From the IMG/VR virus record IMGVR_UViG_2718218133_000001: 64,000 bases of DNA, one strand, 5' to 3'. The position numbers and the translations under genes were made by a program. This document shows, piece by piece, positions 42,891-59,912 of the stretch. Numbering within the stretch: position 1 is the stretch's first letter; the number at the start of each line of letters is the position of its first letter. Source of the stretch: a virus (lineage: Duplodnaviria > Heunggongvirae > Uroviricota > Caudoviricetes). The notes beneath the pieces are model-generated. The model searched no databases and was not told the DNA's origin. It saw nothing but the letters and a program-made list of their open reading frames with translations.

Positions 42891-42920
42891 AAAAAATCCC
42901 GCCGAGTGGCGGGATTTCTT
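42888..42920. terminator. bidirectional intrinsic terminator
   Basis: a8-atcccgcc-gagt-ggcgggat-ttt; perfect 8-10 bp GC stem between convergent stops. Confidence 0.7.
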
Positions 42921-43228
42921 CAATATACGATCTGGTCTACATGATCACCAAAATCATCGTCGTCGTCCTCATCGCCACCATCTACTGCTGGCCAATCAAC
43001 AAACCAGCCAGCGTAAAGATGCAGCGTTCGGAGAACATCACTTGCGGGAGCATCAAGGGTGTTAACGAATCCCATATAGCTATTGGGATTTGCCCCAGCT
43101 ATGGCTTCAGCGATCATGTCCTCGGTAATGTCACCGGAGATAATGCTTAAACGCCCGGAAACTTCTTCATTATCATCAAATTCGATAATGGCATCTCCAC
43201 CTAATGGCGCTGCGATTTTAATCTGCAT
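42920..43228 (-). CDS. hypothetical acidic protein
   Basis: 102-aa ORF downstream of the ddrB-position gene; DDDDD run. Confidence 0.35.
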   Translation of the reverse strand: MQIKIAAPLGGDAIIEFDDNEEVSGRLSIISGDITEDMIAEAIAGANPNSYMGFVNTLDAPASDVLRTLHLYAGWFVDWPAVDGGDEDDDDDFGDHVDQIVY

Positions 43229-46205
43229 TATTTAGCTCCTTTGCCACACCTAATAACAGTTCCAGCAATCCGTCACCATTCATCAGTGATGCGGCAGCGG
43301 CCTCTTTGTCATGATACAACTGAAGAGCCATAGAGAATACTTCCGTTGCTGACGTTTTGGAAATAGTCGGTGATTTCTGCCGAATTTTCCCGGTGTTACT
43401 TACTGAGGCTGGCGGGTATACCTTCGCCATATAAATATTACTCAATCGAGATCTGAAGCACCATTCAGGCTTGCCACGCCCACCGATATTGACGAAAGAT
43501 GGCTTATCCCCTTCAACATTGGCCTTCAGGAATGACCGGGCTTTCTCTAACAAACCAGGGTTACTGTACTCAAGATGATGACCCAGCTCGTGCCACAGTG
43601 CACTTGCATTTTCATCGTTCAAATTGACAGCAACAACACCATTTAGATTTGCATATGCCCTTCCCTGGTGGTGAACCACCTTTGATAAGGTCGATATTTT
43701 CCCGCCGGTCAGGCGATAAATATCAGCAAGTTCCTTGCGCAGGTCTATCCCACCATTCTGTCCAGCGCGGACTTCTTCCACTTCTTCTGTGATAAAAGAG
43801 TCGGCCCACTCAAGAGCTTTTTCTTCAGATACGGATGAGTTTGCGATCGCACTGTTCATGGCAGATAACACTTTCTCGTGGACCGAACCCATACTTCGCT
43901 GATTCATTTGCCAGCGTATCTGCGGGTTATATGAGAATCGCTTAAGTAGTTGGTCAAGCTGCTCAAGTTCTTCTTCACTGACATACTTTTTAGCCTCACC
44001 AATAATGCCAGGGAGAATATTGCCGTTAGGATTAAACGCTCGCGAAAGGAAGAGTTTCAGCGCCCCCATGCCCTCCGATGCTTCAATATCACCAATAACC
44101 CGGTTAACAATGGCCGCACTCTTCGGATTAGCATCCGCCAACGCTCTGGCTACGATTTGCAGGGACGATACGACCTCACGCTGCATATCAGTCCTGATCT
44201 CATCAATAAACTCTGGCGTTATGCCGTGCTCTTTAAGAATATCCCGGCCTTCCGCCGTTACCCCATCGATATCACCGACATGTTTATTAACACGACTTTG
44301 CAATGCCTTAAATGCCTTCAGAATTCCACGGGCATCATCCGCTTTACTAACGGCCTTCCTGAATGCTGGCAAGAAGTCTGAGTTAACCTCATTTTGTTGA
44401 TCGGCCCACTGAATGGAGGCTTCTTTCATCTCGTCCAGAGTCAGATCACCCAACGCGGTATGGTCTGTGAATATGAGCGACAACCTCTGAACCATTTCTG
44501 CCAATGGTGATGCCGAATGCGCCGCGCTAAGGAATGCTTTCACCCTGGTTGGGCGAATGGAAAACCAGTCAATAGCTGGTGGCATATCTCCGTTTTTTAT
44601 CGCCTGCGCTATCTCGTCAAAGCCATCGCGCCCAAGGGAGGATGCGTGATTTAACAAGCCGCGAAGTAACGAATTGCTGATACCGAATAATCGGCACCAT
44701 TTTTTCACGTCGGCAACAGGCATTCGAACAAAATGCGCAAGCACTTGTACAAGCTGTTCATCCTGGGGATCTGTGCGGGAAAGCAGCCTGATCAGATGAA
44801 TAATGTCTTTGATGCCGGATGCCCGATGTAATAGCAAACTGGTATACGGAGCAACACCGTTGTAACTACCGCCGGAAACGGACTCGAAAAGACCGCCGGA
44901 TATCCCTTGCATGCCTTCGTTTTCCAGTTCCTGAGACACCTGGCGAAGGATATCCTGTAACGACACATCGCCGCCGCCAAACATATCCCCCAGCGCCTGG
45001 CCCTGGTGCTGTAACTCATCATTGATACGTTGAGCCATCAACTTAAAGGCGGTGGCCATACGCTTCGCGCTACGGTTATTCGCGACGATGAACAACGCGA
45101 GTGCTTTCACTTCCGGGGCCGTTTCGCTGAACATATCCCCCTGAGCAATAACATCGGTAATATGCTGGCCTGACTCCTTCGATTGCCTTACCAGGTCTAC
45201 CGCATCTTTCAATGCCGCCAGCGCCTTTTTATCGAGGCTATCTGCTGTCTCAATGCCATCAACAATAGTTGTCACAGCCTGCTTGTGCGCTTCTCCTGAT
45301 AAAGCCTGCATCTGGACAAAATCATTGGCTGCCGCATTAAGCGCCGTCAGAACATTACGCATATCCGGATCAGGTTCTTCTGCAACCATCCTTACCAGGC
45401 GCGCATCCTTATATGCCTTGGCAAAGATCGCGTTTTGTATACGGTCTACAAGTTGCCGTGTTGGTCGCCCATCTTCAGTTACAAGGCCAGCCGCCTGTGT
45501 GGCACCAACTTGCGTCATAAATCCGCGAATAAACGCGTCATTACTGCGGCTAAGCAGATCTCCGCTTTCTGACGGGTTAAAAAGCGCCATCATCGCCGGT
45601 GTTATGCTGTCGGCATCAACAAAAGCTTTTTCACTGGCTGCCATTTCCTGAAGATCAGAAATATTTGAGTCCTTGGCAAACTGAACGCGGTCAACCTTAG
45701 TTAACCGGCGGCGCACCAGTACCGGAGCCGTCATTGATTCAACCTTTTCAGGAGGTATGCCGAATTCGGTCGCATGTTCAATCAGGTACTCACGATACCG
45801 ATCCGCATTGCCGTCCTGATAGGCTTTGATGATCCCCATGGTCCGTCCATTACCTGACTCAACGGCATTGTCCTCACCAATTATCGGCGCACCATGGCTG
45901 GATAAACCGGAATCAGTAAGCTGAGCTGGCCGCAAATCTTTGGATATCTGGTTAACCTGAAGAAGGCTGGATGCGCGGGTCCGGTCGCGCGGCTGAAGTT
46001 CCTGGGGATAGTCAGGATTAATTTTCCCATCCAGAGTATTGGATACCAAAAGAGCTGAGGCATCGACGATATCAAACGCTGTTTTTACCTCGTCTCCCTT
46101 CGCTGTCACCACATACGAAACCCGCCCATAATCGGGCAGGTTCTTTAGCAGCTCGATCAGCGTTTCTATGCTGGTGGCCATTACCACCTGATCGCTTAAG
46201 CTCAT
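43218..46205 (-). CDS. large dar-operon protein (DdrB-like by position and size)
   Basis: 995-aa ORF downstream of the darA- and ddrA-position genes. Confidence 0.55.
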   Translation of the reverse strand: MSLSDQVVMATSIETLIELLKNLPDYGRVSYVVTAKGDEVKTAFDIVDASALLVSNTLDGKINPDYPQELQPRDRTRASSLLQVNQISKDLRPAQLTDSGLSSHGAPIIGEDNAVESGNGRTMGIIKAYQDGNADRYREYLIEHATEFGIPPEKVESMTAPVLVRRRLTKVDRVQFAKDSNISDLQEMAASEKAFVDADSITPAMMALFNPSESGDLLSRSNDAFIRGFMTQVGATQAAGLVTEDGRPTRQLVDRIQNAIFAKAYKDARLVRMVAEEPDPDMRNVLTALNAAANDFVQMQALSGEAHKQAVTTIVDGIETADSLDKKALAALKDAVDLVRQSKESGQHITDVIAQGDMFSETAPEVKALALFIVANNRSAKRMATAFKLMAQRINDELQHQGQALGDMFGGGDVSLQDILRQVSQELENEGMQGISGGLFESVSGGSYNGVAPYTSLLLHRASGIKDIIHLIRLLSRTDPQDEQLVQVLAHFVRMPVADVKKWCRLFGISNSLLRGLLNHASSLGRDGFDEIAQAIKNGDMPPAIDWFSIRPTRVKAFLSAAHSASPLAEMVQRLSLIFTDHTALGDLTLDEMKEASIQWADQQNEVNSDFLPAFRKAVSKADDARGILKAFKALQSRVNKHVGDIDGVTAEGRDILKEHGITPEFIDEIRTDMQREVVSSLQIVARALADANPKSAAIVNRVIGDIEASEGMGALKLFLSRAFNPNGNILPGIIGEAKKYVSEEELEQLDQLLKRFSYNPQIRWQMNQRSMGSVHEKVLSAMNSAIANSSVSEEKALEWADSFITEEVEEVRAGQNGGIDLRKELADIYRLTGGKISTLSKVVHHQGRAYANLNGVVAVNLNDENASALWHELGHHLEYSNPGLLEKARSFLKANVEGDKPSFVNIGGRGKPEWCFRSRLSNIYMAKVYPPASVSNTGKIRQKSPTISKTSATEVFSMALQLYHDKEAAAASLMNGDGLLELLLGVAKELNNAD

Positions 46206-46217
46206 CCCTGTTACGCC

Positions 46218-46583
46218 TTATGCTGCCTCTTTAATGTTGGCGGCTATCCATGCCGCCGTGTGCTGTTTAACCTGGTCCAGGTCGATGTATGTGCCAACAT
46301 ATTGACTCAAATCCTGCAAGGTACCGATAAATGCATCGGTGCTCTGATCGACGAATTTATCAGCCAGGAAATCAGCAACCAGTTTTGGCACACCATCATG
46401 TACCGAAGGTTGTTTTTCCTCGCCACTACTGCCGCCGGACACACCGTACCCCATCTGTTGCATGATCTGGTCAATTTCATCGCTGATATCCAGCAACTCC
46501 ATGCCACTCGCGGTAGCCGCTTTGGACATCAGAGCATCCAACTTATCGCTGAGATCCATTAACTCAATAGCTGATAGTGTCAT
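46218..46583 (-). CDS. small dar-operon protein (DdrA-like by position and size)
   Basis: 121-aa ORF between the darA- and ddrB-position genes. Confidence 0.45.
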   Translation of the reverse strand: MTLSAIELMDLSDKLDALMSKAATASGMELLDISDEIDQIMQQMGYGVSGGSSGEEKQPSVHDGVPKLVADFLADKFVDQSTDAFIGTLQDLSQYVGTYIDLDQVKQHTAAWIAANIKEAA

Positions 46584-48499
46584 GCCGCTACCCCCGCTTT
46601 CTGGATTGCTACCAACAGATCAGCCAGGTGGCGAGCTGCGCCGTTAACCAGCTCTTCGTTTTCCTCAAAACGTCCGGCAGCCTGAAGGGCTGCAATCGCT
46701 TCCCGGACATTGCCCCGGGCGTTACGGATCTCCGCCATGTCAGTGCTTTGTATATCCATCACGTTATTGAGATATTCAATGGCTTTATTAGCCTCTGCAT
46801 CTGCTTCGCTAACCGTTTCATCAGGCTGTGCCGTGGCCGGTTCTGGCTGAGTAATCTCACCGACTTCGGCCTGCAATGCATTGATCATGCTCTGCACCAT
46901 TTTCTCGGTGCCAGCGCCCCCCGGAAACGCAATATTGGGGAAAGTTTTTTGAAACTGAGTTTTCAGCATTACGCGGAACTCGTCTGGTGAGCTGGTGGCC
47001 AGCTCCAGAGCTTTTTGTGCATATTTGCCAAACGGACCATTAGTAAGTGTCTTCGCCAGGAAGTCGAAAGAATCCTCGCGAGGCAATAACTTCAGGTCGT
47101 ACTCACTCATTTGCTGATCAGAAAGCGGGGTATCGTAAGTAGCAATGCCGTAGCGTGCATATTCATAATACGGGTCACCTTCATCAGGGCGCGGCAGAAT
47201 TGCTTTGTTACCTTCAGGTATTGCGCCAGGGGCCGCCGGACGCATTTGCAGGGCATATCGATATGCACCTACAGAGACTTCTGGTTCAGGCGAAGAGCTA
47301 CCGGTATCCTCCGCTGGTTCAGGTTCGACGTTTTCCGGTTTATGTTCTTCTGGTTGGACCAGGTATTCCGATACATTACCCGCTTTATAGGCTTTAAACA
47401 GCTTGCCGATCGCATCTGCCATGTCCACACCCTGTATGGATTTAGCCTTGATCATGTATACGCTGCCATCCGGATCGGTTAACTGGATATACCCTTCGCC
47501 GCCCCCAATGAATTGCTTCATTGATGCACCATTACTGAGCGTCACTTCCCCGTCCATATGCATACGATTTTTGATACTGGCAAGGCGATCCGTCAGCGCG
47601 CGAGAGTGCCCACCAGTCATCCCCGCTGGAGCAATGGTATCGCGCCCACCAGTGCGATTGAGCTGATCAATCTCCGTCTGCAAACGCTCATTCTCTTCAT
47701 AAAGAGAATCCGCTTCCGATGCAACAGCGTTAATTTTCTGCTCCAGATCTGCCTTCTGCCCTTCTACCGCTGCCACCTGATCCGCGAGGTCGCTCATGGC
47801 ATCCTCTTTCTGGTCACTGTCAGCCTGTAGTTGGGTTATTTCATCAACAAGGGCTTTTTTCTTCTTCTGCGCACGCTGGAATTTTGCCGAGTTTTTCTCT
47901 GCAAGGTTGGCAAGTTTCATGGTGACCTGCGCCAGCGTCATATCACGTCCACTCATCGGAGCAACGGTGTGAGTAACGTCTTTTTTATTCAGTAAGAACT
48001 GGAAAGCAACCAGCGTATCGCTATTGGTGATCCGGTTTTCCGCTGTCGGGCTATGAAACAGAATGCTGATAGTCTGACCATCACTGAGCGGAATAATGGC
48101 TGGCAAGACCGGCAGCCCGTTAACGTTACGTGCCCGGCCAATTTCAGCGCCGCCGATCGCGCGCGCGCCGCTCTGGGCCACATCCCCCGTTTTATCACTC
48201 CCCGCAGAGATTCCGGTACCATTCAGCTTCTGGTTCAATGCCCGGACAAATGCCTGCATGGTCCGGTGTAACTGCAAACGAGTAGAACTAATCGCCTCCA
48301 GTAAATCCGTAGCACACCAGTGGATCGGCGTGTCATAGAAGAACGTAGCCTCGATTTCCTCCAGGGTGTTGGATTCCGTCATCAGATAGCGGTCCTCACC
48401 GGCCATTAATGCGCGATATTCATCATCAGTCACTGGCGGGGGAAGCACGTCAAGCCCAGGCTTGATCGTCACCCCTTTATTGATATTGAACTGTTCCAT
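46580..48499 (-). CDS. darA: DarA-like antirestriction/capsid protein
   Basis: 639-aa ORF in the expected operon position after the hdf-position gene; central coiled-coil. Confidence 0.6.
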   Translation of the reverse strand: MEQFNINKGVTIKPGLDVLPPPVTDDEYRALMAGEDRYLMTESNTLEEIEATFFYDTPIHWCATDLLEAISSTRLQLHRTMQAFVRALNQKLNGTGISAGSDKTGDVAQSGARAIGGAEIGRARNVNGLPVLPAIIPLSDGQTISILFHSPTAENRITNSDTLVAFQFLLNKKDVTHTVAPMSGRDMTLAQVTMKLANLAEKNSAKFQRAQKKKKALVDEITQLQADSDQKEDAMSDLADQVAAVEGQKADLEQKINAVASEADSLYEENERLQTEIDQLNRTGGRDTIAPAGMTGGHSRALTDRLASIKNRMHMDGEVTLSNGASMKQFIGGGEGYIQLTDPDGSVYMIKAKSIQGVDMADAIGKLFKAYKAGNVSEYLVQPEEHKPENVEPEPAEDTGSSSPEPEVSVGAYRYALQMRPAAPGAIPEGNKAILPRPDEGDPYYEYARYGIATYDTPLSDQQMSEYDLKLLPREDSFDFLAKTLTNGPFGKYAQKALELATSSPDEFRVMLKTQFQKTFPNIAFPGGAGTEKMVQSMINALQAEVGEITQPEPATAQPDETVSEADAEANKAIEYLNNVMDIQSTDMAEIRNARGNVREAIAALQAAGRFEENEELVNGAARHLADLLVAIQKAGVAA

Positions 48500-48500
48500 G

Positions 48501-49112
48501 TTAATTTCCTGCTTTCAGTTGCTTAAGACGGCGTTTGAGTTCGCCATTTCGGGCCTTTTCGTTATTGAGTCGGCCTGTCTCCTTATCCAGCTTCGCCCGC
48601 AAATCAGTGATCTGCTGTTGATTGAAAGACACCGAGTTCTGCGCTGATTTATAAGCGGCAACCACCTGAGCATTCCGCTGTTTTGCCTCTTGCAGGCGCT
48701 GAAAGTTGGATTTTACTGCCGGTTTCTTGTCTACCGGATTGGCAACACGTTTCGCTTTGGCGATCAGTGAGTTCTGGAATTTTGCGGAGTTTTTGCGGGC
48801 CGCTTGCCCCATGACGGTACCAAGCGTCTTGATATCCGGCGATTGAGCGTTAGGAATAGCTTTTCCATTCAGCCTCACAGACGATATATCGCCAGTATCG
48901 TTTACCTGTATGGCAAGAATTTGTCCGTCGTTAAGAACCAGCTTTGCGGTTTTAACTTTAACGCCATCTTTCGTTGTTGCGCGGTTGCTGGAGTCAACCT
49001 CAATTACCGTAACACCGGTTTTATTGATCGCCGCGATAAGGGATTTCAGCCCCTTTTCATTAACCTGGTCAAAATCGACCGTTGCATACTTATTTTTCGT
49101 CATCTGACACAT
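48501..49112 (-). CDS. Hdf-like head morphogenesis protein (first gene of dar operon)
   Basis: 203-aa ORF directly upstream of darA; basic coiled-coil C-terminus. Confidence 0.5.
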   Translation of the reverse strand: MCQMTKNKYATVDFDQVNEKGLKSLIAAINKTGVTVIEVDSSNRATTKDGVKVKTAKLVLNDGQILAIQVNDTGDISSVRLNGKAIPNAQSPDIKTLGTVMGQAARKNSAKFQNSLIAKAKRVANPVDKKPAVKSNFQRLQEAKQRNAQVVAAYKSAQNSVSFNQQQITDLRAKLDKETGRLNNEKARNGELKRRLKQLKAGN

Positions 49113-49533
49113 CCTGTGCGAGATTTATTACGTAACTTCTGCGGATTTGCTGAGTAACAGGGAAAATCCGATACAACGGGTTAATGAACGAGTCGCCATG
49201 CGTAACCATGACGTTGAAATGCCACAGTCGCTCTCCTTTACCCATATATTCAGTGGGTATGTACAACCATTCACTGTTTTCGCCCTGTTCAGCCGACGTC
49301 AAACAACGTTGTTCGCCTTCAATCACTGTCGTCGGCTTCTGAACATCGCGGATCCAATATCTGACCGTTGCGCCGCGCAAAAACGGGAATTTAGACCGGT
49401 ATTTGAACGGCACCCGGATGAAACCCGGTTTAATTTCCACATCACCAAGTTCTAAATGCGTGATGTCCTTGCGTTTTAGCAAATAGCGATCGGCTAAGGC
49501 TAACGCAAGAACGCATACACCCCAGCCAATCAT
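49090..49533 (-). CDS. LydB-like antiholin-position protein
   Basis: 147-aa ORF overlapping the holin stop. Confidence 0.45.
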   Translation of the reverse strand: MIGWGVCVLALALADRYLLKRKDITHLELGDVEIKPGFIRVPFKYRSKFPFLRGATVRYWIRDVQKPTTVIEGEQRCLTSAEQGENSEWLYIPTEYMGKGERLWHFNVMVTHGDSFINPLYRIFPVTQQIRRSYVINLAQDVSDDEK

Positions 49534-49859
49534 TTCCCGCCTCCCTTTTTCACCAAACTTGTAAGAACATTCAGAATGCTATCGATATTCACTCGTTTCA
49601 TCCCTGAAATCACCTCATGACCGTTATTGCTGGCTATCGTTACCATTAAGTACGTAATTGATAACTCCCAGCCCTCGTGTTGCCCCAATAGGTACGCCAC
49701 CGCGCCAGCTGTCACTGCAACAAAGATCTCCGTAACCAATCCCAACAAATTGCCAGACTGGCGACCGTCTCGGACATCCATCAGGAACGTGCCTATCCCA
49801 CCAATTACTGAAAGCAGGAGCGCAATAGCAACTGGAGCTAATTCCTGTGTGTCAAGCAC
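49530..49859 (-). CDS. holin (LydA-like)
   Basis: 109 aa; hydrophobic segments; charged C-terminus. Confidence 0.6.
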   Translation of the reverse strand: MLDTQELAPVAIALLLSVIGGIGTFLMDVRDGRQSGNLLGLVTEIFVAVTAGAVAYLLGQHEGWELSITYLMVTIASNNGHEVISGMKRVNIDSILNVLTSLVKKGGGK

Positions 49860-49933
49860 AAGTTCCCTCCTACGTTGTCAGGAGGTAATGGTATGCAAAG
49901 TAACTTCTCAACCGGTTATGTTGCATAAGAGAC

Positions 49934-50197
49934 TTACCTATTCAACCGACTTTTGGAACCTTCAATAATAAGCCTGCTATTGGCGCTGAAAATAAGAACC
50001 ATGCAGCTCTGAAGGCTTTCATTCATATCCTTATATTCCGCGAGATACATGCCAATAAAGCCAGCAAGTACGGCGGAAATACATTCGGCCAGCAATTTCT
50101 TGCATGAAGACTCGTAACGGTTTTCACATAGCCCACTCAAATACGAATACACCCCACCAAGAAGGGATAACATCACGATATGTACATAAAATGTCAT
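49934..50197 (-). CDS. small membrane protein (possible second holin-like gene)
   Basis: 87 aa with two hydrophobic stretches. Confidence 0.4.
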   Translation of the reverse strand: MTFYVHIVMLSLLGGVYSYLSGLCENRYESSCKKLLAECISAVLAGFIGMYLAEYKDMNESLQSCMVLIFSANSRLIIEGSKSRLNR

Positions 50198-50324
50198 TTT
50201 TTACCTATACAACAGTAAGTTGAACAACATCTGAGAACGGTATGCACTTTGTGATTTCCACACACACTGGTTTTGTTAATTAAAACCTGTAGCTTGCAAT
50301 AAATAACGATAGTGGGCAGAAAAT

Positions 50325-50510
50325 ATGCTAATAGGCTATGTACGCATATAGACAAATGAACAAAACACAGCTATGCAGTGAAAAGCACTTGAAAGCGCAG
50401 GATGTGAGCTAATTTTTGCGAATAAGGCGAGCAGCAAAAAGGCTGGGCACCCTGGGTTAAAAAAGGTTCTGCGTATGCTTTCCAGAGGTGATACCCTAGT
50501 CTCGGGCTAG
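50325..50510 (+). pseudogene. degenerate 5' remnant of a cin/gin-type serine invertase gene
   Basis: Translation MLIGYVRI*TNEQNTAMQ*KALESAGCELIFANKASSKKAGHPGLKKVLRMLSRGDTLV matches the N-terminus of Cin/Gin invertases but has in-frame TAG (codon 9, where the catalytic Ser is expected) and TGA (codon 19), then diverges. Confidence 0.6.
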
Positions 50511-50632
50511 GGACAACATTTCGAGGACAGTTTTCATTAGCGGTCAGCAGGCGCTAGATACATCGAATTGATGTGCCGCGCGATAAATGTACCTATTCTA
50601 TCAAGATAAATTACACCGACGCGGCATTAGAA

Positions 50633-51205
50633 TTACAGCTCAGATTGAGTTTGGCGCTTCTCTACAGGATGATAACGATAAATCGTCGATACACCGATAT
50701 CGTAAATAATTGCCAACTGTTTCCTGCTGTAGCCATTTTCGATCAACCTCGCTATTTGCTCATGTTGTTCTTTTGTCAACTTCGGGCGACGTCCGCCAAT
50801 GCGTCCCTGTTCGCGTGCAGCTGCCAGTCCGGCCAGTGTTCTCTCAACAATTAATTCACGTTCCATTTCTGCTAAAGCCCCCATGACGTGAAAAAAGAAA
50901 CGCCCCATGGGTGTTGATGTGTCAATACTGTCTGTCAGACTACGGAAATTAACACCTTTTTCCCGCAACTCCTCTATAAGCGTGATAAGGTGTTTCATAC
51001 TTCTGCCAAGCCTATCCAGCTTCCAGACAACCAGCGTATCTCCTTCTGATAACGTTCTGAGCAGCTTTTTCAAGCCTGGTCTGGCTGACTTTGTTCCGCT
51101 TATTTTATCTTCAAAAATCAGTTCACATCCTGCGCAGTTCAGTGCATTTCTTTGTAAATCTGTGTTTTGGTCATTTGTTGACACACGAATGTAGCCAATT
51201 TGCAT
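50633..51205 (-). CDS. cin: Cin/Min-family serine DNA invertase
   Basis: From the ATG at 51203-51205: MQIGYIRVSTNDQNTDLQRNAL..; resolvase catalytic domain plus C-terminal HTH; adjacent to the first crossover site. Confidence 0.9.
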   Translation of the reverse strand: MQIGYIRVSTNDQNTDLQRNALNCAGCELIFEDKISGTKSARPGLKKLLRTLSEGDTLVVWKLDRLGRSMKHLITLIEELREKGVNFRSLTDSIDTSTPMGRFFFHVMGALAEMERELIVERTLAGLAAAREQGRIGGRRPKLTKEQHEQIARLIENGYSRKQLAIIYDIGVSTIYRYHPVEKRQTQSEL

Positions 51206-51259
51206 GAAAAACAACCTCTTTGTTTAGTTAAAAATACATCGTTGGTATAGGTAGGGATT

Positions 51260-51285
51260 AAGACTAAAACGTTGGTTTGGGGGAA
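51260..51285 (+). repeat. invertase crossover site 1 (hix/gix-like)
   Basis: ..aaaacg-TT-ggtttgggggaa; resembles the hix core AAAACC-AA-GGTTTTT; conserved half-site GGTTTGGGGGAA. Confidence 0.55.
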
Positions 51286-51752
51286 GGCTCTGCATTGCCT
51301 GTTGGTGTACCTGTTCCATGGCCCTCAGCCACACCACCAACGGGGTGGCTAAAATGTAACGGAGCAGCATTTTCTTCTGAAAAGTACCCAAATCTGGCAA
51401 AGGTTTACCCAACGTTAAAATTACCTGATTTACGCGGTGAGTTTATCCGTGGTTGGGATGATGGGCGCGGGGTGGATGCGGGACGTGCTTTATTGAGCAT
51501 TCAGACAGGAATGCTGGAAAAGCACCGACATATTGTTGTAGCCAATGATGGTTACGACACAAAAGATGAATGGGAGCTGGCGACAATTTTCAAAAAAACA
51601 TACACACAAGGACGGGGCTTGATGCCTCAAATACAGGAGGGAATTTGATTCCATCACCGACACTTCATTCTCGAGGGAGTATTGGTAATACTGGCGGGAG
51701 TGAAACCCGTCCACGAAATATCGCATTTAATTACATCGTAAGGGCGGCATAA
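51277..51752 (+). pseudogene. tail-fibre variable cassette 1 (frameshifted)
   Basis: Conserved N-terminal module GEGSALPVGVPVPWPSATPPTGWLKCNGAAFSSE.. in frame 1 (track ORF 51277..51648); conserved C-terminal ETRPRNIAFNYIVRAA only in another frame (track ORF 51570..51752). Confidence 0.45.
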
Positions 51753-51771
51753 AAACGTTGGTTTGGGGGAA
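51746..51771 (+). repeat. invertase crossover site 2
   Basis: Same core aaaacg-TT-ggtttgggggaa. Confidence 0.55.
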
Positions 51772-52260
51772 GGCTCTGCATTGCCTGTTGGCGTACCTGT
51801 TCCGTGGCCATCAGCCACACCTCCAACGGGGTGGCTGAAATGCAATGGTGCAGCATTTTCTTCTGAAAAGTACCCAAATCTGGCAAAGGCTTATCCCACC
51901 AATAAATTACCGGATTTACGGGGAGAATTTATTCGTGGCTGGGATGATGGGCGTGGCATTGATCCTAGACGTGCCTTGCTAAGTCTTCAGAATGGAGGAG
52001 TGGAATCACACACCCACCAAGGGCAGCTCTTCAGAGTTAGTGATTATCGTACAAATGAAATACCAGCATCAGAAGTTATGGGAAGAAACTATCTTGCAAG
52101 CCTGACGCCGGGTGCTAATAGCCCACTTGATTTTGATGATTATCCTGTAGCTCTTATTCCAAATGGATATTTTGTCGGGAATCAGAGAACAACAGCATAT
52201 GGGATAAATGAAACCCGTCCACGGAATATTGCATTTAATTACATCGTAAGGGCGGCATAA
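51763..52260 (+). CDS. tail-fibre variable cassette 2 (promoterless 3' gene segment)
   Basis: Starts in-frame inside the crossover site with no ATG; conserved N- and C-terminal modules, unique middle. Confidence 0.6.
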   Translation: MGEGSALPVGVPVPWPSATPPTGWLKCNGAAFSSEKYPNLAKAYPTNKLPDLRGEFIRGWDDGRGIDPRRALLSLQNGGVESHTHQGQLFRVSDYRTNEIPASEVMGRNYLASLTPGANSPLDFDDYPVALIPNGYFVGNQRTTAYGINETRPRNIAFNYIVRAA

Positions 52261-52279
52261 AAACGTTGGTTTGGGGGAA
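52254..52279 (+). repeat. invertase crossover site 3
   Basis: Same core. Confidence 0.55.
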
Positions 52280-52699
52280 GGCTCTGCACTGCCTGTTGGT
52301 GTGCCCGTTCCGTGGCCCTTAGAAACACCACCAACGGGCTGGCTAAAATGTAACGGAGCAGCATTTTCTTCTGAAATGTATCCCAAACTGGCAAAAGCCT
52401 ACCCCACCAATAAATTACCGGATTTACGCGGTGAATTTATCCGTGGCTGGGATGATGGGCGCGGGATTGATGCGGGACGTACCCTGCTTTCAGGGCAGGA
52501 TGGTACAAGTTTTTCTCATTACGGAGGTAATTTCGACATTGGGTCTGGTCATTCAATCAATAACTATGACCAAATTGTTTCTAACCAACCAGGATTTTCC
52601 CGTTTTTCATTTGCAGGGCCTTCACGAGGTGATGGGGTTAATTATGTAACCATTCGTCCTCGTAACATTGCGTTTAATTATATCGTAAGGGCGGCATGA
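52271..52699 (+). CDS. tail-fibre variable cassette 3
   Basis: As cassette 2; different central segment. Confidence 0.6.
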   Translation: MGEGSALPVGVPVPWPLETPPTGWLKCNGAAFSSEMYPKLAKAYPTNKLPDLRGEFIRGWDDGRGIDAGRTLLSGQDGTSFSHYGGNFDIGSGHSINNYDQIVSNQPGFSRFSFAGPSRGDGVNYVTIRPRNIAFNYIVRAA

Positions 52700-52718
52700 A
52701 AACGTTGGTTTGGGAGAA
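52693..52718 (+). repeat. invertase crossover site 4 (variant half-site GGTTTGGGAGAA)
   Basis: Same core with one substitution. Confidence 0.5.
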
Positions 52719-53207
52719 GGCTCTGCATTACCTGTTGGTGTCCCTGTTCCGTGGCCTTCAGCCACTCCGCCAACAGGCTGGCTGAAATGCAACGGTGCGG
52801 CTTTTTCTGCTGAAGAATACCCGGAACTGGCAAAGGCTTACCCGACAAATAAATTGCCTGATTTACGTGGTGAGTTCATTCGTGGCTGGGATGACGGGCG
52901 CGGGATTGATCCAGGTCGCTCTATTTTAAGCGAGCAAGGATATGCAACGGAGGATCATGCTCACGGATTACCGTCAAAATCAACCGTAGCAACTGACAGC
53001 TCAATTAATTTCTACTTTGACGAGGCATGGGCTACTAGTGGTAATACGGGAGTTATCAGATGGGGGAACACAAGCGATGCAGGATTGCCAGCCCCTAATT
53101 ATGGAACTTTTAAAACATATAAACAGTCCGTAGCTAATTTAGGTACTGCTGGCTTAGAAACCCGCCCTCGTAATATTGCATTTAATTATATTGTGAGGGC
53201 GGATTAA
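52710..53207 (+). CDS. tail-fibre variable cassette 4
   Basis: As cassette 2; different central segment. Confidence 0.6.
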   Translation: MGEGSALPVGVPVPWPSATPPTGWLKCNGAAFSAEEYPELAKAYPTNKLPDLRGEFIRGWDDGRGIDPGRSILSEQGYATEDHAHGLPSKSTVATDSSINFYFDEAWATSGNTGVIRWGNTSDAGLPAPNYGTFKTYKQSVANLGTAGLETRPRNIAFNYIVRAD

Positions 53208-53212
53208 TTATA

Positions 53213-53824
53213 TCAACTGGCTGTAGAAAGTTGTTTTTCAGGCCAGTTGAGATCTGGTGCCGTGGTTAAATCCATCGCGTTCAGCTCGTCTATATAATCT
53301 AGCACGGAGTTAAGCTGCGTGGTTTCTGCCTGCGTCAACTTCCGTCCAGCCCGTAATTTCAACTGAATCAGACTAATGGAATCCATCGCAGTATCAATCA
53401 ATGACTGACGTTTTGTTTCTGCTGCCTCTACAGCTGCACTATGTTGAGCCTCAGTATCAACCACCCATTTCTCTCCATCCCATTTGTCGTATGGTGTTAG
53501 CGGGGCGATAGTGGTTGTATTTTCCGGATAGTCACCCAACACCGTGATTTCTTCGGGATTCCCTGTGTCAATGCTATAGACAGTTTCGCCACGATGATCT
53601 GGCACATACTCCCATGAACTTAAATCCTCTGAACGGAGAATCGCATAACCTGCTTTATGTGAGCCTGGAGCATCCAAACAAGAATGTGCCGGAATACCAA
53701 CGCCAACAGCAAGATATTCAGTTGATGCAGAAATATATTCCCGATTACCACCATCATAGTTATAAACGATAATGTTTCCTGCCTGTATGGCTATAAGTTC
53801 GCTATTTAATATCGCATTATCCAT
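53213..53824 (-). CDS. U: tail fibre assembly protein (U-like)
   Basis: 203-aa ORF whose ATG overlaps the cassette 5 stop (TAATG coupling); Tfa-like composition. Confidence 0.7.
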   Translation of the reverse strand: MDNAILNSELIAIQAGNIIVYNYDGGNREYISASTEYLAVGVGIPAHSCLDAPGSHKAGYAILRSEDLSSWEYVPDHRGETVYSIDTGNPEEITVLGDYPENTTTIAPLTPYDKWDGEKWVVDTEAQHSAAVEAAETKRQSLIDTAMDSISLIQLKLRAGRKLTQAETTQLNSVLDYIDELNAMDLTTAPDLNWPEKQLSTAS

Positions 53825-54282
53825 TATGCTGCTCTCACAATATAATTGAAGGCAATGTTACGTGGGCGGGTTTCATTCCCCCCAGATAACTCCGTTCTGT
53901 ATTGACTGGTAAATTTACCATTAATCGCTCCTTCTTGGACGGCGTTATCTGTCGACAACAGGCTATCCCCCCCTCTGTCATTTGGCACCAATACCGTGTT
54001 ATCCCACGCGTCCCATGACCGAATATTATGATAATGACTTCCTGTTAACCACCCCTGTATGCTTAAGATGACCCTTCCCGCATCCACACCTCGCCCATCA
54101 TCCCAACCACGGATAAACTCACCGCGTAAATCAGGTAATTTTAACGTTGGGTAAACCTTTGCCAGATTTGGGTACTTTTCAGAAGAAAATGCTGCGCCAT
54201 TGCATTTCAGCCACCCCGTTGGAGGTGTGGCTGATGGCCACGGAACGGGCACGCCAACGGGCAGTGCAGAGCCTTCCCCCAA
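53824..54282 (-). CDS. tail-fibre variable cassette 5 (minus orientation, coupled to U)
   Basis: Same conserved N- and C-terminal modules on the minus strand, starting inside crossover site 5. Confidence 0.6.
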   Translation of the reverse strand: MGEGSALPVGVPVPWPSATPPTGWLKCNGAAFSSEKYPNLAKVYPTLKLPDLRGEFIRGWDDGRGVDAGRVILSIQGWLTGSHYHNIRSWDAWDNTVLVPNDRGGDSLLSTDNAVQEGAINGKFTSQYRTELSGGNETRPRNIAFNYIVRAA

Positions 54283-54299
54283 ACCAACGTTTTATGCCG
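54274..54299 (-). repeat. invertase crossover site 5 (inverted orientation)
   Basis: Reverse complement of the core: ttcccccaaacc-AA-cgtttt. Confidence 0.55.
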
Positions 54300-54717
54300 C
54301 CCTTACGATGTAATTAAATGCAATGTTACGAGGACGATGGTTACATATTACGACCATCAATCGTGAATGTCCAGTATAATGAAAAACTCAATAATTCCGT
54401 CTTAGGCTGTAGATAATACTTGTCATAGTTATGATTGAATGACCAGACTCAATGTCGAAATTACCTCCGTAAAGAAAACAATATGTCTGATCCTGCCATT
54501 CTGAATAGCAGTACGTCCAGATCAATCCCCGCCCATCATCCCAGCCGCGATAAATTCACCCGTAAATCCGGTAATTTATTGTGGGTAGCCTTTGCCAGTT
54601 TGGGATACTTTCAGAAGAAAATGCTGCACCGTTGCATTTCAGCCACCCCGTTGGAGGTGTGGCTGATGGCCACGGAACGGGCACGCCAACAGGCAGTGCA
54701 GAGCCTTCCCCCAAACC
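54300..54717 (-). pseudogene. degenerate variable cassette currently joined to the S constant region
   Basis: Paralogue of cassette 3 with multiple single-base deletions; reading frame from the constant part stops at 54556 after ..AAFSSE-SIPNWQRLPTINYRIYG. Confidence 0.55.
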
Positions 54718-57135
54718 AAGGTAATTAAGAACGCTCTGAATACTGGGCTTACTAAGAATTGCACGTCCAACACTTGTCAGTGCAGTTAACGCGGCACGAT
54801 CAACCCCTGTGAAATAAGGGAGTTTATCTGCTGCGGTAGCTAGTGCCGCTAGAGCAGTGAGCGTAGCGTCTGCCGCTTGCTTTCCATTAGCCAAATCATA
54901 TGCAGCCTTGACAGCTTTCGGTGTAGCGGCCAGCACTTCAGACGTGCTGTTAGTGGCACTACTGAGCTGAGTGATGCCTTTCGCTGTCAATGAAGCTGTT
55001 GGCACACCAGTAATCTGATTCCAGGGATGTGTATGACTGGATGGTGCTTTTTCGGCTGCTAGATCGTATGCAGCTTTAACCGCTTTTGGCGTTGCAGCTA
55101 ATGTTTCAGAAGTGCTGTTGGTGTCGCTACTGAGCTGAACTATCCCTTTTTGTGTCGTGGTTGCATCCTGGGCTGTATACTTCCCGTTAGCCAGGTCATA
55201 TGCAGCCTTGACAGCTTTCGGTGTGGCGGCCAGCACTTCAGACGTGCTGTTAGTGGCACTACTGAGCTGAGTGATGCCTTTCGCTGTCAATGAAGCTGTT
55301 GGCACACCAGTGATCTGATTCCAGGGATGTGTATGACTGGATGGTGCCTTTCCGGCTGCTAGATCGTATGCAGCTTTAACCGCTTTTGGCGTTGCAGCTA
55401 ATGTTTCAGAAGTGCTGTTGGTGTCGCTACTGAGCTGAACTATCCCTTTTTGTGTCGTGGTTGCATCCTGGGCTGTATACTTCCCGTTAGCCAGGTCATA
55501 TGCAGCCTTGACAGCTTTCGGTGTGGCGGCCAGCACTTCAGACGTGCTGTTAGTGGCACTACTGAGCTGAGTGATGCCTTTCGCTGTCAATGAAGCTGTT
55601 GGCACACCAGTGATCTGATTCCAGGGATGTGTATGACTGGATGGTGCCTTTCCGGCTGCTAGATCGTATGCAGCTTTAACTGCTTTTGGCGTTGCAGCTA
55701 ATGTTTCAGAAGTGCTGTTGGTGTCGCTACTGAGCTGAACTATCCCTTTTTGTGTCGTGGTTGCATCCTGGGCTGTATACTTCCCGTTAGCCAGGTCATA
55801 TGCAGCCTTGACAGCTTTCGGTGTGGCGGCCAGCACTTCAGACGTGCTGTTAGTGGCACTACTGAGCTGAGTGATGCCTTTCGCTGTCAATGAAGCTGTT
55901 GGCACACCAGTGATCTGATTCCAGGGATGTGTATGACTGGATGGTGCCTTTCCGGCTGCTAGATCGTATGCAGCTTTAACCGCTTTTGGCGTTGCAGCTA
56001 ATGTTTCAGAAGTGCTGTTGGTGTCGCTACTGAGCTGAACTATCCCTTTTTGTGTCGTGGTTGCATCCTGGGCTGTATACTTCCCGTTAGCCAGGTCATA
56101 TGCAGCCTTGACAGCTTTCGGTGTGGCGGCCAGCACTTCAGACGTGCTGTTAGTGGCACTACTGAGCTGAGTGATGCCTTTCGCTGTCAATGAAGCTGTT
56201 GGCACACCAGTGATCTGATTCCAGGGATGTGTATGACTGGATGGTGCCTTTCCGGCTGCTAGATCGTATGCAGCTTTAACCGCTTTTGGCGTTGCAGCTA
56301 ATGTTTCAGAAGTGCTGTTGGTGTCGCTACTGAGCTGAACTATCCCTTTTTGTGTCGTGGTTGCATCCTGGGCCGTATACTTCCCGTTAGCCAGGTCATA
56401 TGCAGCCTTGACAGCTTTCGGTGTGGCGGCCAGCACTTCGGACGTGCTGTTAGTAGCACTGCTGAGCTGAACTAATCCCTTTTGCGTTGTGCTTGCATCC
56501 TGCGCCGTATACTTGCTTTTCGCCAGATCGTAGGCTTTTTTAACTGCCAGCGAACTTGCAGCGACATCACTTCTGGTACTGGTTACAGAGTCGGAAATTT
56601 CAATGCCTATCGTGAGATCGATGCGGTCGGATACATCTATCATTTCCTGAGTAATAGCAGATACGCCAGCAGGGATATTCACCGTACAAACAAGCAGTTC
56701 CCCATCTCCTAACTGATATGAATCGGTATAGGTTCTGGCAACAAATTCAGCTGCATGAATATGTGACGCGGTATTCACCTGATAGGTATCTTCTCCAAGA
56801 AGGTATCTTCCCTTCAGCACAATTGCATATTTCTTGCCTGCGTTAAGTGCAAGAGAGATATCCTTACGATGCTGAATAGTTACCTGGTAGAATTCACCAA
56901 TATCCACTGACGCCGCGCCAGCGGTTTTATCTCCATCCACTGAGGTGATTAACAGGTTCATCCCACCGCCAGGCTTAGGCAAGAAACCAGCATAAAATCC
57001 CGGGTCAACAATTCCCCTGAATTTTCGGTTTAGAGCGGCTGACAGATATGGTTCGTGGTATTGCACATCAGCCACCAGAGCCAACGACTCGGGTGATGGG
57101 TAAGTAACCGATGTAACAACTGTAACGTCATTCAT
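54556..57135 (-). CDS. S: tail fibre protein S, constant part plus fused degenerate cassette
   Basis: Likely start MNDVTVVTSV (the track ORF extends to 57222); about five 100-aa repeats with HTHPWNQITGVP motifs; ends in the crossover-site-encoded LGEGSALPVG. Confidence 0.8.
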   Translation of the reverse strand: MNDVTVVTSVTYPSPESLALVADVQYHEPYLSAALNRKFRGIVDPGFYAGFLPKPGGGMNLLITSVDGDKTAGAASVDIGEFYQVTIQHRKDISLALNAGKKYAIVLKGRYLLGEDTYQVNTASHIHAAEFVARTYTDSYQLGDGELLVCTVNIPAGVSAITQEMIDVSDRIDLTIGIEISDSVTSTRSDVAASSLAVKKAYDLAKSKYTAQDASTTQKGLVQLSSATNSTSEVLAATPKAVKAAYDLANGKYTAQDATTTQKGIVQLSSDTNSTSETLAATPKAVKAAYDLAAGKAPSSHTHPWNQITGVPTASLTAKGITQLSSATNSTSEVLAATPKAVKAAYDLANGKYTAQDATTTQKGIVQLSSDTNSTSETLAATPKAVKAAYDLAAGKAPSSHTHPWNQITGVPTASLTAKGITQLSSATNSTSEVLAATPKAVKAAYDLANGKYTAQDATTTQKGIVQLSSDTNSTSETLAATPKAVKAAYDLAAGKAPSSHTHPWNQITGVPTASLTAKGITQLSSATNSTSEVLAATPKAVKAAYDLANGKYTAQDATTTQKGIVQLSSDTNSTSETLAATPKAVKAAYDLAAGKAPSSHTHPWNQITGVPTASLTAKGITQLSSATNSTSEVLAATPKAVKAAYDLANGKYTAQDATTTQKGIVQLSSDTNSTSETLAATPKAVKAAYDLAAEKAPSSHTHPWNQITGVPTASLTAKGITQLSSATNSTSEVLAATPKAVKAAYDLANGKQAADATLTALAALATAADKLPYFTGVDRAALTALTSVGRAILSKPSIQSVLNYLGLGEGSALPVGVPVPWPSATPPTGWLKCNGAAFSSESIPNWQRLPTINYRIYG
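54706..54731 (-). repeat. invertase crossover site 6 at the 3' end of the S constant region
   Basis: ttcccccaaacc-AA-ggtaatta; left half-site differs from the cassette sites. Confidence 0.55.
54880..56470. repeat. tandem array of about 5.3 x 300-bp near-identical coding repeats inside S
   Basis: The 60-bp lines at 55201, 55501, 55801 and 56101 are identical or differ by a single base (the 55501 line has an extra T-to-C); the 54901 copy is slightly diverged. Confidence 0.85.
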
Positions 57136-57659: not shown

Positions 57660-58379
57660 TCACGCATCGCTATCCAACAGCAAATCATCTGCGCGGGTGC
57701 GATCAAACGTAGGCGTTGCTTTCACAATAGTGCCACCAGGCGTTGCGGTGATCGGGGCGCTAATCGACGTAACTCCAGTAAGCGAAGTTGTATCCGAAGT
57801 TTCAAACCAGCAGAATGCTTTTTCGGTATCAGAAATCTCGTTCAAAGTGATCATGTCGGCCTGTTCATTTACAACAACCGACAAATAGAGCGTAAGCCCA
57901 TCAAACACTATATGCAGTGGCAGTAGAGGCTTTACGAACTGATTAAACTTTCTGAGAATTTCTTCTGTAATTGCGGACTGATCTATCGTTCCAGTAATAC
58001 CCATTGTCCGGGCCAGGTCGTTTATGGGAATACTGATCATTCCTCTGGAAGTCAGAAACATCTCGCCGAATGTGCCGCCGGTGGTTTCCAGTGTGCTTTC
58101 TGGAATCAGGACCGTACCATAGGGATGACGTTCAAAGTCCACCGGAGCATATATGGGATCCCATAAAACCGATATACCGTTAAATTCGCGATAAATTGTC
58201 TGGTTTATAGGGCGTTCAGTGCCCTTAAAATGGATCTCATCAAACCGCTGTTGTAGCAACATCGGAACGGAAGATGAATTCGACGTTCTGATAGTAAAAA
58301 ACTGGCCAAGTTCATTTGTCCTGGTCTCCAGATCCTCCTTGCTCATGGAGAAAATAGACTTCCGGTTGGTAGTCAACAA
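57660..58379 (-). CDS. baseplate-region structural protein (P1 gene 16 position)
   Basis: 239-aa ORF in the tail/baseplate block. Confidence 0.4.
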   Translation of the reverse strand: MLTTNRKSIFSMSKEDLETRTNELGQFFTIRTSNSSSVPMLLQQRFDEIHFKGTERPINQTIYREFNGISVLWDPIYAPVDFERHPYGTVLIPESTLETTGGTFGEMFLTSRGMISIPINDLARTMGITGTIDQSAITEEILRKFNQFVKPLLPLHIVFDGLTLYLSVVVNEQADMITLNEISDTEKAFCWFETSDTTSLTGVTSISAPITATPGGTIVKATPTFDRTRADDLLLDSDA

Positions 58380-58478
58380 AGGTGTCCATCATTGACTGAA
58401 CCAAATCAGCCAATGATTTATAAAGTAATGACTTTTGCTTAGCTGATGTAAGCCGGTTATTAAACCAGGAACGCTGCA

Positions 58479-59912
58479 TCACTCCTCCTCATACGAAATA
58501 TTAAAGGTGGAGTTTTCTGTATCCAGATAAACGAAATCGTAAAAGCCGTTGGACTCATTCCACTCGACAAATTCCAGATAAAAGTCGCGGAAATAGCCCA
58601 GCGTTTCGATAAACGCCCAAACGTCTTTTTTCTTAATCAGGATGTACTTTCCGACGCGGTTCGGATCAAAGAAAGTTGAGTCGCGCCCAAATTTTGTTTC
58701 CAGTGCCGACTTCAGCTCATCGGTCACGTTCTCAATGGTCAGGCTTGCCGATATTCGCCCGGTGATGGTGATCTTAAAGGGTAGTTTTCTGACCTCTTTA
58801 TACGAAAATTTCTTGTTCAACTCATTCGGCACCTTCTTAAAAGCGGCCAGGATCATTTCCTCAAGCTCTGACTGACTTTTATTCGGATGCCATCCTGAAA
58901 TAAATATCTTATTGATATTCCGAACATTATAAGCACCATCTAATTTCTCTTGCTGGCCTTCGCCCCATGCCTTTACCCAGGACAGTCCCGGGATGTTACG
59001 CACCAGAAAATACGTATAGTCCCCGCCCCATACGACCTGATCATCATAGGCAAGGTAATATTGTGCACGATTACGTGTGATCTCCGTTGTTTCGGCATCG
59101 GTACCTGCGGTTATGGGTGTCGTTGTCTTAACTGAAATCAAATTAGCTAAATTAGCCGCAGAATCGACAGGCGTCAGATTTTGGCCAGCAACCAAGGTTA
59201 TATCTCCGTTGGTGCACCATACCTTAAGTGTAATGGTCGAGCCTTCTGGCGGTATTTGCCCAATTAGCCCATCACCGAATCGAACCCCCAACTGCTCGGA
59301 TGGTTTATAAAACTCAACGTAGACCTGGCTTTTACTACCGGCTAACCGGAACATAGTGCTGGAAGACCACTGCGTGGTCTTACCATCGGTCGTCACGAAT
59401 ACTTCCAGCTTATAGCAGACAGCAGTGAGAGCCTTTGATAACACGACTTCCAGAAATTCTTTGGCTGCCGTAACGGTATATGTCACCTCCTGGATTTCCA
59501 ACTGTGCCACTTCTACCGTACCGGTGCCGTCAACCAACCTGCATACATCCATAGTCATGTAAGGGTACTGGTCGTCAGATATTAAAGGCATATTTTTGGG
59601 GATTACCGCTGGGGCATCTTCACTTGTGGCGGTGATCTCAATCATCCCCGATGACGGTGTTGGCTTGGTACCAACGTAACTATTCGTTTCTGCCGCTGCC
59701 AGGATAGAGGAACGCCGCGTCGCGGTCGATATAAAGCCTTCAGCCAGCGCCGCATCGGCATACTGAAAGCACCTGTAGACAATCTGGGTAATAAACAATG
59801 TCAGCATCGAGACAAATTGAGAGCCGACAAACTTCGACCAGAATGAATCTTTCTCGACAAGCTCTTCAAACTCTGCACGAATACTGTCTTTAGTCGGTGT
59901 TGTTTTACTCAT
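58479..59912 (-). CDS. baseplate protein (BplA/gpJ-like)
   Basis: 477-aa ORF upstream of the gp25-like gene. Confidence 0.45.
   Translation of the reverse strand: MSKTTPTKDSIRAEFEELVEKDSFWSKFVGSQFVSMLTLFITQIVYRCFQYADAALAEGFISTATRRSSILAAAETNSYVGTKPTPSSGMIEITATSEDAPAVIPKNMPLISDDQYPYMTMDVCRLVDGTGTVEVAQLEIQEVTYTVTAAKEFLEVVLSKALTAVCYKLEVFVTTDGKTTQWSSSTMFRLAGSKSQVYVEFYKPSEQLGVRFGDGLIGQIPPEGSTITLKVWCTNGDITLVAGQNLTPVDSAANLANLISVKTTTPITAGTDAETTEITRNRAQYYLAYDDQVVWGGDYTYFLVRNIPGLSWVKAWGEGQQEKLDGAYNVRNINKIFISGWHPNKSQSELEEMILAAFKKVPNELNKKFSYKEVRKLPFKITITGRISASLTIENVTDELKSALETKFGRDSTFFDPNRVGKYILIKKKDVWAFIETLGYFRDFYLEFVEWNESNGFYDFVYLDTENSTFNISYEEE

Follow-up and report, generated by a model that had tools for sequence, protein, structure and literature searches.

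A single missing G interrupts one silent cassette of a Min/Cin-type tail-fibre inversion switch in a P1-like phage-plasmid

The window investigated in this study, a stretch of 64,000 nucleotides from a virus of the Caudoviricetes (IMG/VR record IMGVR_UViG_2718218133_000001), is that of a P1-like phage-plasmid and contains a Min/Cin-type multiple DNA-inversion switch for the tip of the tail fibre. In this switch, the cassette proximal to the invertase gene (cassette 1, 51274-51752, plus strand), which is a silent and promoterless 3' segment for the tail-fibre tip, lacks a single G in a short homopolymer run. The loss changes the reading frame inside the variable core of the cassette and separates the two conserved ends of the encoded domain. 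We regard this lesion, with a modest degree of confidence, as a genuine and very recent mutation that has left the silent cassette as a null allele among the alternative tips.

The interruption is apparent in the two open reading frames that divide the cassette. The first (51277-51648, plus strand, 123 amino acids, coordinates equal to 1 modulo 3) encodes the conserved N-terminal module MGEGSALPVGVPVPWPSATPPTGWLKCNGAAF...RGEFIRGWDDGRG, which is common to all neighbouring segments, and terminates after QGRGLMPQIQEGI (in its longer form TYTQGRGLMPQIQEGI) at a premature TGA codon in the shifted frame, located at 51646-51648 by both the sequence and the list of open reading frames. The second (51570-51752, plus strand, 60 amino acids, coordinates equal to 0 modulo 3) ends on GSETRPRNIAFNYIVRAA (in its longer form GNTGGSETRPRNIAFNYIVRAA) and carries the conserved C-terminal module ETRPRNIAFNYIVRAA with its stop codon (51702-51752, plus strand), which in cassette 1 is out of frame with the N-terminal module. 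Both frames had been recognised with correct coordinates in a preliminary description of the region made from the sequence alone, and the frameshift that it had placed inside the variable core is borne out by the comparisons described below. The 16 residues that end cassette 1 recur unchanged at the end of cassette 2 (open reading frame 51763-52260) and cassette 5 (open reading frame 53824-54282, minus strand), and chance is therefore no concern. We have rejected the possibility that the two open reading frames constitute separate genes, since neither has a promoter or ribosome-binding context of its own and the intact allele is a single open reading frame. The apparent TTG start at 51277 is an artefact of the ORF finder: the TT core of the crossover site directly precedes the beginning of the cassette at 51274, and the intact allele comprises 159 codons when counted from the crossover. 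Residues 10-57 of cassette 1 match the Pfam Collar domain.

Alignment to homologues in related plasmids, a check that the preliminary description had proposed, has located the indel and, together with pairwise comparison, has narrowed it to one missing G, with a run of five in all other copies examined being reduced to four in the window (51614-51617, plus strand). A megablast search of PLSDB had retrieved 172 plasmids with related sequence, nearly all being non-mobilisable plasmids from E. coli with a size of 90-100 kb, and the alignment at cassette 1 took in three plasmids, namely LR130557, CP012491 and CP088429. LR130557 and CP012491 read GGACGGGGGCTTG at the place where the window reads GGACGGGGCTTG. 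The former encodes a single uninterrupted product of 158 amino acids from TTG, which ends on TYTQGRGLDASNTGGNLIPSPTLHSRGSIGNTGGSETRPRNIAFNYIVRAA followed by a stop, and the annotated coding sequence of the latter has a later start and encodes 152 amino acids with the same ending. CP088429 has kept the G5 run but has lost one A from an A7 run located 15 nucleotides upstream of it, which constitutes an independent frameshift; in the window this A7 run (51592-51598, plus strand) is unchanged. As a consequence of the missing G, the product of cassette 1 is normal through Leu115 and continues with eight aberrant residues before the stop, with residues 116-158 (43 residues) missing.

Among 5,426 complete E. 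coli genomes, the window comes closest to a plasmid of 96.5 kb from the strain MMC-J-0066, which encodes the intact 158-residue product of cassette 1. Between 51260 and 51770 the window departs from this plasmid at one point, the G missing at 51614; both sequences are otherwise 100% identical from 46276 to 51780, and the same position accounts for the only gap in a high-scoring segment pair of 9,072 nucleotides (42892-51962, 99.77% identity). When a 100-nucleotide query centred on the lesion was compared to the same collection, it found 77 records, 61 of which match at 99.0% over a 101-nucleotide span and are thus identical except for the presence of G5, and none of the 5,426 genomes contained the G4 allele as a 100/100 match. 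A pattern permitting A6 or A7 in combination with a run of G4 or G5 (54 nucleotides in the form containing A7 and G5) matched three contigs of IMG/VR, one GTDB genome and three metagenome contigs, all of them with A7 and G5. The intact protein of 158 residues, which is annotated as WP_071991362 in a relative (L004/L006), is present on 90 contigs in a collection of 15 billion proteins, from which the truncated open reading frames of the window are absent. In total, G4-bearing sequence was found neither in PLSDB, the INPHARED phages, the complete E. coli genomes and IMG/VR nor in GTDB representatives, JGI metagenomes and exact-protein look-ups, and the allele is private to the window.

The organisation of the switch provides the context in which the lesion has to be read. 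The invertase gene (50633-51205, minus strand) encodes a serine DNA invertase of the Min/Cin type of 190 amino acids, starting at an ATG at 51205, with the ORF finder running on to a TTG at 51214. The protein contains a Resolvase domain (PF00239, E = 2e-51) and a helix-turn-helix domain (HTH_7, PF02796, E = 3.5e-15), it matches the structures of the Mu invertase Gin (3UJ3 and 4M6F) at full length with an E-value of about 1e-91, and it shares 74% identity over 186 residues with Cin of P1 and 189 of 190 residues with the invertase of pJIE250-3. The latter is 98.5% identical to Min of p15B and is inverted in orientation relative to P1 cin (PMC6906374), and the gene in the window is likewise oriented opposite to P1 cin. 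Within its 5' part, 59 nucleotides (51123-51181, minus strand) align by blastn at 83% identity with the annotated enhancer of P1 cin (AF234172), which marks this segment as a candidate recombinational enhancer. The crossover sites are of the 26-bp type, with conserved half-sites flanking a central AA/TT dinucleotide, as exemplified by the site S1 (51260-51285), which on the minus strand reads TTCCCCCAAACC-AA-CGTTTTAGTCTT with its core dinucleotide at 51272-51273. A search for the pattern TTC(C/T)CCCAAACC-AA-(C/G)GT found six copies in the window compared to 0.03 expected by chance, four of them on one strand (at 51269, 51755, 52263 and 52702) and two on the other (at 54274 and 54706). These sites share the architecture of cixL and cixR of P1, where the annotated crossover falls in the same central TT/AA.

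One of the six sites, S0 (54706-54722), is located inside the tail-fibre gene S, whose frame continues through it (...LNYLGLGEGSALPVG...), and the other five reside at the 5' edge of a cassette, each overlapping the stop codon of the preceding one. On the plus strand, cassette 1 is followed by cassette 2 (51760-52260, site S2 at 51755-51771), cassette 3 (52268-52699, site S3 at 52263-52279) and cassette 4 (52707-53207, site S4 at 52702-52718, with one mismatch). On the minus strand, cassette 5 (53824-54285, site S5 at 54274-54290) is accompanied by cassette 6 (54283-54722), which is of the cassette 3 type with many indels and is currently joined at S0 to the constant part of S (54723-57135). 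The start of S at 57135 was placed by alignment to homologues, with the listed open reading frame reaching an upstream TTG at 57222, and its product contains twelve Pfam Phage_fiber_2 matches. Cassettes 2 to 5 are intact and, when read from the crossover, encode ends of 143-166 residues. An excess of promoter-like sites was not detected in the cassettes. The constant part of S contains a tandem repeat (54880-56470) with 5.3 copies of a 300-nucleotide unit at 98% identity, and since the length of S varies among related plasmids, that of the fibre probably varies by gain or loss of such units. A single gene, tfa (53213-53824, minus strand, Pfam Caudo_TAP, E = 3e-30), encodes the tail-fibre assembly chaperone equivalent to U of P1. 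It is the only one for six cassettes, and its start overlaps the stop codon of cassette 5 so that only some isomers have it in the orientation of S; the near-invariance of the C-terminal module RPRNIAFNYIVRA may allow one chaperone to serve every tip.

Reading from the crossover shows 62 of the 71 cassettes in 11 related loci to be intact, with ends of 143-168 residues. The nine broken ones are all found in three assemblies, and eight of the 11 loci are wholly intact. The number of cassettes per relative ranges from 4 to 11, their order varies between plasmids, and the type that is fused to S is c5-like in two loci (L003 and L006), c3-like in two others (L011 and L012) and of a 168-residue type in L002. 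Such a distribution of cassette types in varying order and orientation, with varying fusions to S, looks like the footprint of active multi-site inversion. The N-terminal module of cassette 1 (51274-51480) equals that of cassette 5 (54080-54285) at the protein level, both reading ...KVYPTLKLPDLRGEFIRGWDDGRGVDAGR, and differs from the N-terminal module that is combined with the c1 core in LR130557, CP012491 and CP088429, which suggests that N-terminal modules are swapped between cassettes by homologous recombination. In four of the relatives (L004, L006, L011 and L012), the annotation pipeline PGAP has called the start-less cassettes either as stand-alone 'phage tail protein' coding sequences from an internal TTG or as 'incomplete' pseudogenes, all of which are intact from the crossover. 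Another locus (L005, CP142951, 37078-41257) has several cassettes that are truncated or chimeric, among them a c1/c2-like chimera joined to S, together with a frameshifted tfa, and invertible regions are often messy in these assemblies.

The effect of the frameshift on the protein can be appreciated from the homology of the cassettes to tail-fibre tips of known structure. A Collar domain (PF07484, E of about 5e-15) was detected in every cassette, including the truncated open reading frame of cassette 1. A profile built from twelve cassette types and compared with solved structures aligned over the entire cassette with a short tail fibre of 554 amino acids (9CUY, E = 1e-22), and in two pieces with the tip of gp37 from the phage T4 (2XGF, E = 8e-21), with the N-terminal module falling on the collar and the ending ...RPRNIAFNYIVRA on the final residues of gp37 (...VKNIAFNYIVRL). 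The collar domain D10 of gp37 is composed of residues 811-881 and 1010-1026, and the needle domain D11 is an insertion into D10 (PMC6957217), which together with the profile match provides a structural explanation for the layout of the cassettes: their conserved ends would make up a single domain seating the tip on the shaft, with the variable insert as the receptor-binding part. Cassette 1 also contains the motif HRH after the collar, which corresponds in position to the HxH motifs that bind metal. In the intact allele and in cassettes 2 to 5, the collar-closing ending of the NIAFNYIVR type is part of the same polypeptide, which is not the case in cassette 1 as written, where the frameshift removes the half of the insert that returns towards the collar as well as the strand that closes it. 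Judged from this homology, a fibre containing S fused to the G4 allele of cassette 1 should be unable to fold or to form trimers, and we infer that it would be non-functional.

In the explanation that we favour, the cassettes are 3' gene segments lacking a promoter and a start of their own, which would be expressed only once the serine invertase has recombined the site at their 5' edge with the site closing the constant part of S, thereby generating an in-frame join. The tip resembles those of gp37 and gp12 and opens with a conserved part of the collar, into which a variable receptor-binding core is inserted before a conserved last strand (RPRNIAFNYIVRAA) completes the collar. Slippage in the G5 run at 51614-51617 would have removed one G, with the frame departing after Leu115 towards the stop at 51648, and the 43 lost residues cover one half of the variable core in addition to the collar-closing strand. 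The lesion would be tolerated since cassette 1 is not expressed in the prophage and the tail module has already been damaged by a deletion in another gene. Upon a switch to cassette 1, the resulting fibre would be expected to fail in folding or trimerisation.

This second deletion concerns the homologue of P1 gene 16 (57660-58479, minus strand), which has lost 17 nucleotides at 58372 (CCATGGTTGGAGCGAAT) and is frameshifted after residue 36. The deletion is private to the window: the 17 nucleotides are kept in all E. coli matches listed for the deletion junction, and in relatives the gene encodes 278 amino acids, with a relative's protein being 97.5% identical to gp16 of P1. The numbered genes of P1 owe their definition to conditional-lethal mutants. 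With gene 16 broken, the prophage would therefore be defective and its fibre cassettes at liberty to drift, and the prophage is probably tail-defective. At 98-100% protein identity, relatives have in common with the window the C1 repressor, a Cre-like integrase, phd/doc, the terminase, DarA, holins, baseplate genes and an SLT-domain protein. The order of genes in the window (darA-hdf-lydB-lydA-invertase-cassettes-tfa-S-R-16-bplA) matches the order annotated in the P1 genome (darA-hdf-lydB-lydA-invertase-switch-S-R-16-bplA). Compared to the closest plasmids, the window also carries an insertion of about 1.3 kb (37463-38593, minus strand) encoding a TnpB/InsQ-like protein of 376 amino acids, which is located at the 3' end of a portal-like gene and alters its last residues. 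In several other P1-like plasmids, an InsQ/TnpB gene is annotated within the matched 25-kb region.

The strongest competitor of a genuine mutation is a sequencing or assembly artefact, in which the missing G would result from the under-calling of a homopolymer, perhaps worsened by a mixture of inversion isomers, and the real cassette 1 would be intact. We consider this alternative to be the less probable of the two, although it carries appreciable weight. The G4 allele is a singleton that none of the 68 other copies surveyed shares, it represents the shortening of a G5 run, and the 5.5 kb around it are otherwise identical to the closest relative, leaving little time for a real indel to arise. 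The five near-identical repeats of 300 nucleotides that are spanned by the contig imply that it must come from long reads, and single contractions are also found in c1-type cassettes of two other plasmids, in CP088429 (L002, 4045-4419), where A7 is reduced to A6, and in LR130557 (L001, 6120-6612), where a G run is shortened in the N-terminal module of a c1-type copy fused to S. The two contractions reflect either recurrent miscalls or recurrent slippage. Finally, cassette 6, at a distance of 2.7 kb, shows a pattern of indels that is typical of a badly polished consensus and points to difficulties in assembling the invertible region.

These arguments are countered by the quality of the remaining sequence. 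Among 238 homopolymer runs of at least five nucleotides, 236 agree with the relative, with the lesion and one intergenic run as the only exceptions, and a tblastn comparison with about 70 reference genes of this relative has identified no homopolymer frameshift other than the one in cassette 1, which has led us to reject the view that the assembly is error-prone as a whole. If one leaves aside modules that have been replaced, are missing or run past the end of the window, cassette 1 and the gene 16 homologue are the only interrupted genes, and the 17-nucleotide deletion in the latter cannot be a homopolymer miscall, so that real damage to the tail module does exist. The lesion is moreover located in the unique variable core of cassette 1, to which reads map unambiguously. 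On balance, we thus infer that the missing G is real.

The preliminary description had concluded that two of the six cassette-like segments appear decayed. There are indeed six such segments, two of which fail to read through, and the statement is literally true of the sequence as written, yet it is unsafe as a biological statement. For cassette 1, the term is unfit for what is a private one-nucleotide deletion on 5.5 kb of sequence that otherwise equals that of the intact allele. The second segment, cassette 6, is broken as written, with S ending early at 54556 inside the fused cassette, but its condition resembles a poor consensus rather than decay. Its first 110 or so nucleotides are clean and the remainder resembles cassette 3, from which it differs by about 23 deleted and 12 inserted positions (about 35 indel positions) compared to about 38 substitutions. 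Many of the deletions shorten runs of two to four bases by one or fall on positions that vary between cassettes. A close full-length relative of the segment at 88% identity or above was found neither in the 5,426 E. coli genomes nor in PLSDB, and no match in either collection exceeds about 87%. A ratio of indels to substitutions near 1:1 in a segment that is private to one plasmid does not correspond to the natural decay of a pseudogene, and cassette 6 is probably a consensus artefact originating from mixed inversion isomers or from an unpolished long-read bridge.

A different account would take the irregularities of both cassettes at face value: the short homopolymers of the c1-type cassette (the G run of the N-terminal module and the A7 and G5 runs of the core) would constitute a second, mutational on/off layer on top of the inversion switch, as the contractions in c1-type cassettes of three plasmids could suggest. 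Separately, the indels of cassette 6 would originate from a real but unusual mutational process acting at the expressed slot. We view these proposals as very unlikely. Still less credit can be given to the idea that cassette 1 is an old pseudogene under long-term relaxed selection. Silent cassettes are mostly unexpressed, and the nine of 71 cassettes in related loci that fail to read through could be taken in its favour, but these are confined to the three assemblies mentioned above. The G4 allele is private, and neither a substitution nor a second indel distinguishes the cassette and the 5.5 kb around it from the intact allele. We have thus rejected long-term decay, on the grounds of an indel that is not accompanied by substitutions. 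The least probable proposal is a functional change of frame, either by a programmed -1 slip of the ribosome or polymerase, for example at the A7 run, that would restore the C-terminal module, or by a homopolymer contingency tract that would turn this tip on and off. It was equally rejected: -1 is the direction needed, the A7 run (TTC AAA AAA ACA) 15 nucleotides upstream contains shift-prone lysine codons at which a slip would change only seven residues, and three independent homopolymer contractions occur in c1-type cassettes, but every other copy has an uninterrupted frame for the protein with no frameshift signal being conserved, a canonical X XXY YYZ heptamer is not found in register, G5 and A7 fall short of the tract lengths of classical contingency loci, and tract lengths are fixed throughout the 61 near-identical E. 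coli copies and the seven others.

Whether mutation or miscall, the biological weight of the lesion is small, as it affects a single base in one silent cassette of a classic Min/Cin switch. If it is real, as we favour, one displayable host-range variant has become a dead end, and in conjunction with the 17-nucleotide deletion in the gene 16 homologue this suggests a copy that is drifting from phage towards plasmid. Our analysis also has practical implications. In annotation, the cassettes of such arrays are best read from the crossover site, and apparent frameshifts in the invertible regions of long-read assemblies need to be checked in the reads before they are interpreted.

Collectively, the switch described here belongs to a system that is already known, and its lesion is either an ordinary one-base null mutation or a base-calling error. 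The resemblance of the cassettes to the tip of T4 gp37 (2XGF) and to short tail fibres of the gp12 type (1OCY, 9CUY) extends to the N-terminal collar module, the NIAFNYIVR ending at the end of gp37, the HxH motif after the collar and the insertion of the core into the collar. In the T4 proteins, however, the tip is the fixed end of a gene, whereas the inserts of the cassettes are much shorter and interchangeable, and the chaperone in the window is of the lambda Tfa/P1 U type rather than of the gp38/gp57A type. The shufflon of R64, where Rci rearranges C-terminal segments of pilV, similarly uses multiple invertible segments to provide alternative C-termini to one adhesin-like gene, but it relies on a tyrosine recombinase, on other sites and on the tips of conjugative pili and is thus an analogy and not a homologue. 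The Cin/C-segment of P1 and the Gin/G-segment of Mu are closer, as they share the recombinase family, the architecture of the crossover sites (TTCnCnnAAACC-AA-...), an enhancer-like sequence in the 5' part of the invertase gene and the exchange of a variable tail-fibre C-terminus. Both contain a pair of sites and a pair of alternatives that have separate chaperone genes (U and U'), in contrast to the six sites, six cassettes and single tfa of the window, and the Sv segments of P1 encode roughly 500 amino acids compared to the 143-168 residues of the short collar-domain tips. The Min system is a multi-cassette elaboration of these P1 and Mu segments, and the multiple DNA-inversion system of this name was reportedly described on the plasmid p15B by Sandmeier, Iida and Arber between 1990 and 1992, in work to which PMC6906374 and PMC5903667 refer. 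By description rather than site by site, nothing in the window differs in kind from the p15B system, apart from containing one cassette with a one-nucleotide deletion and one that is garbled. Both share the backbone of a P1-related IncY phage-plasmid, what is essentially the Min invertase (via the pJIE250-3 protein) in an orientation opposite to P1 cin, six crossover sites in both orientations, and promoterless alternative 3' ends of S that are arrayed between the invertase gene and S. We thus take the switch of the window to be the Min system known from p15B.
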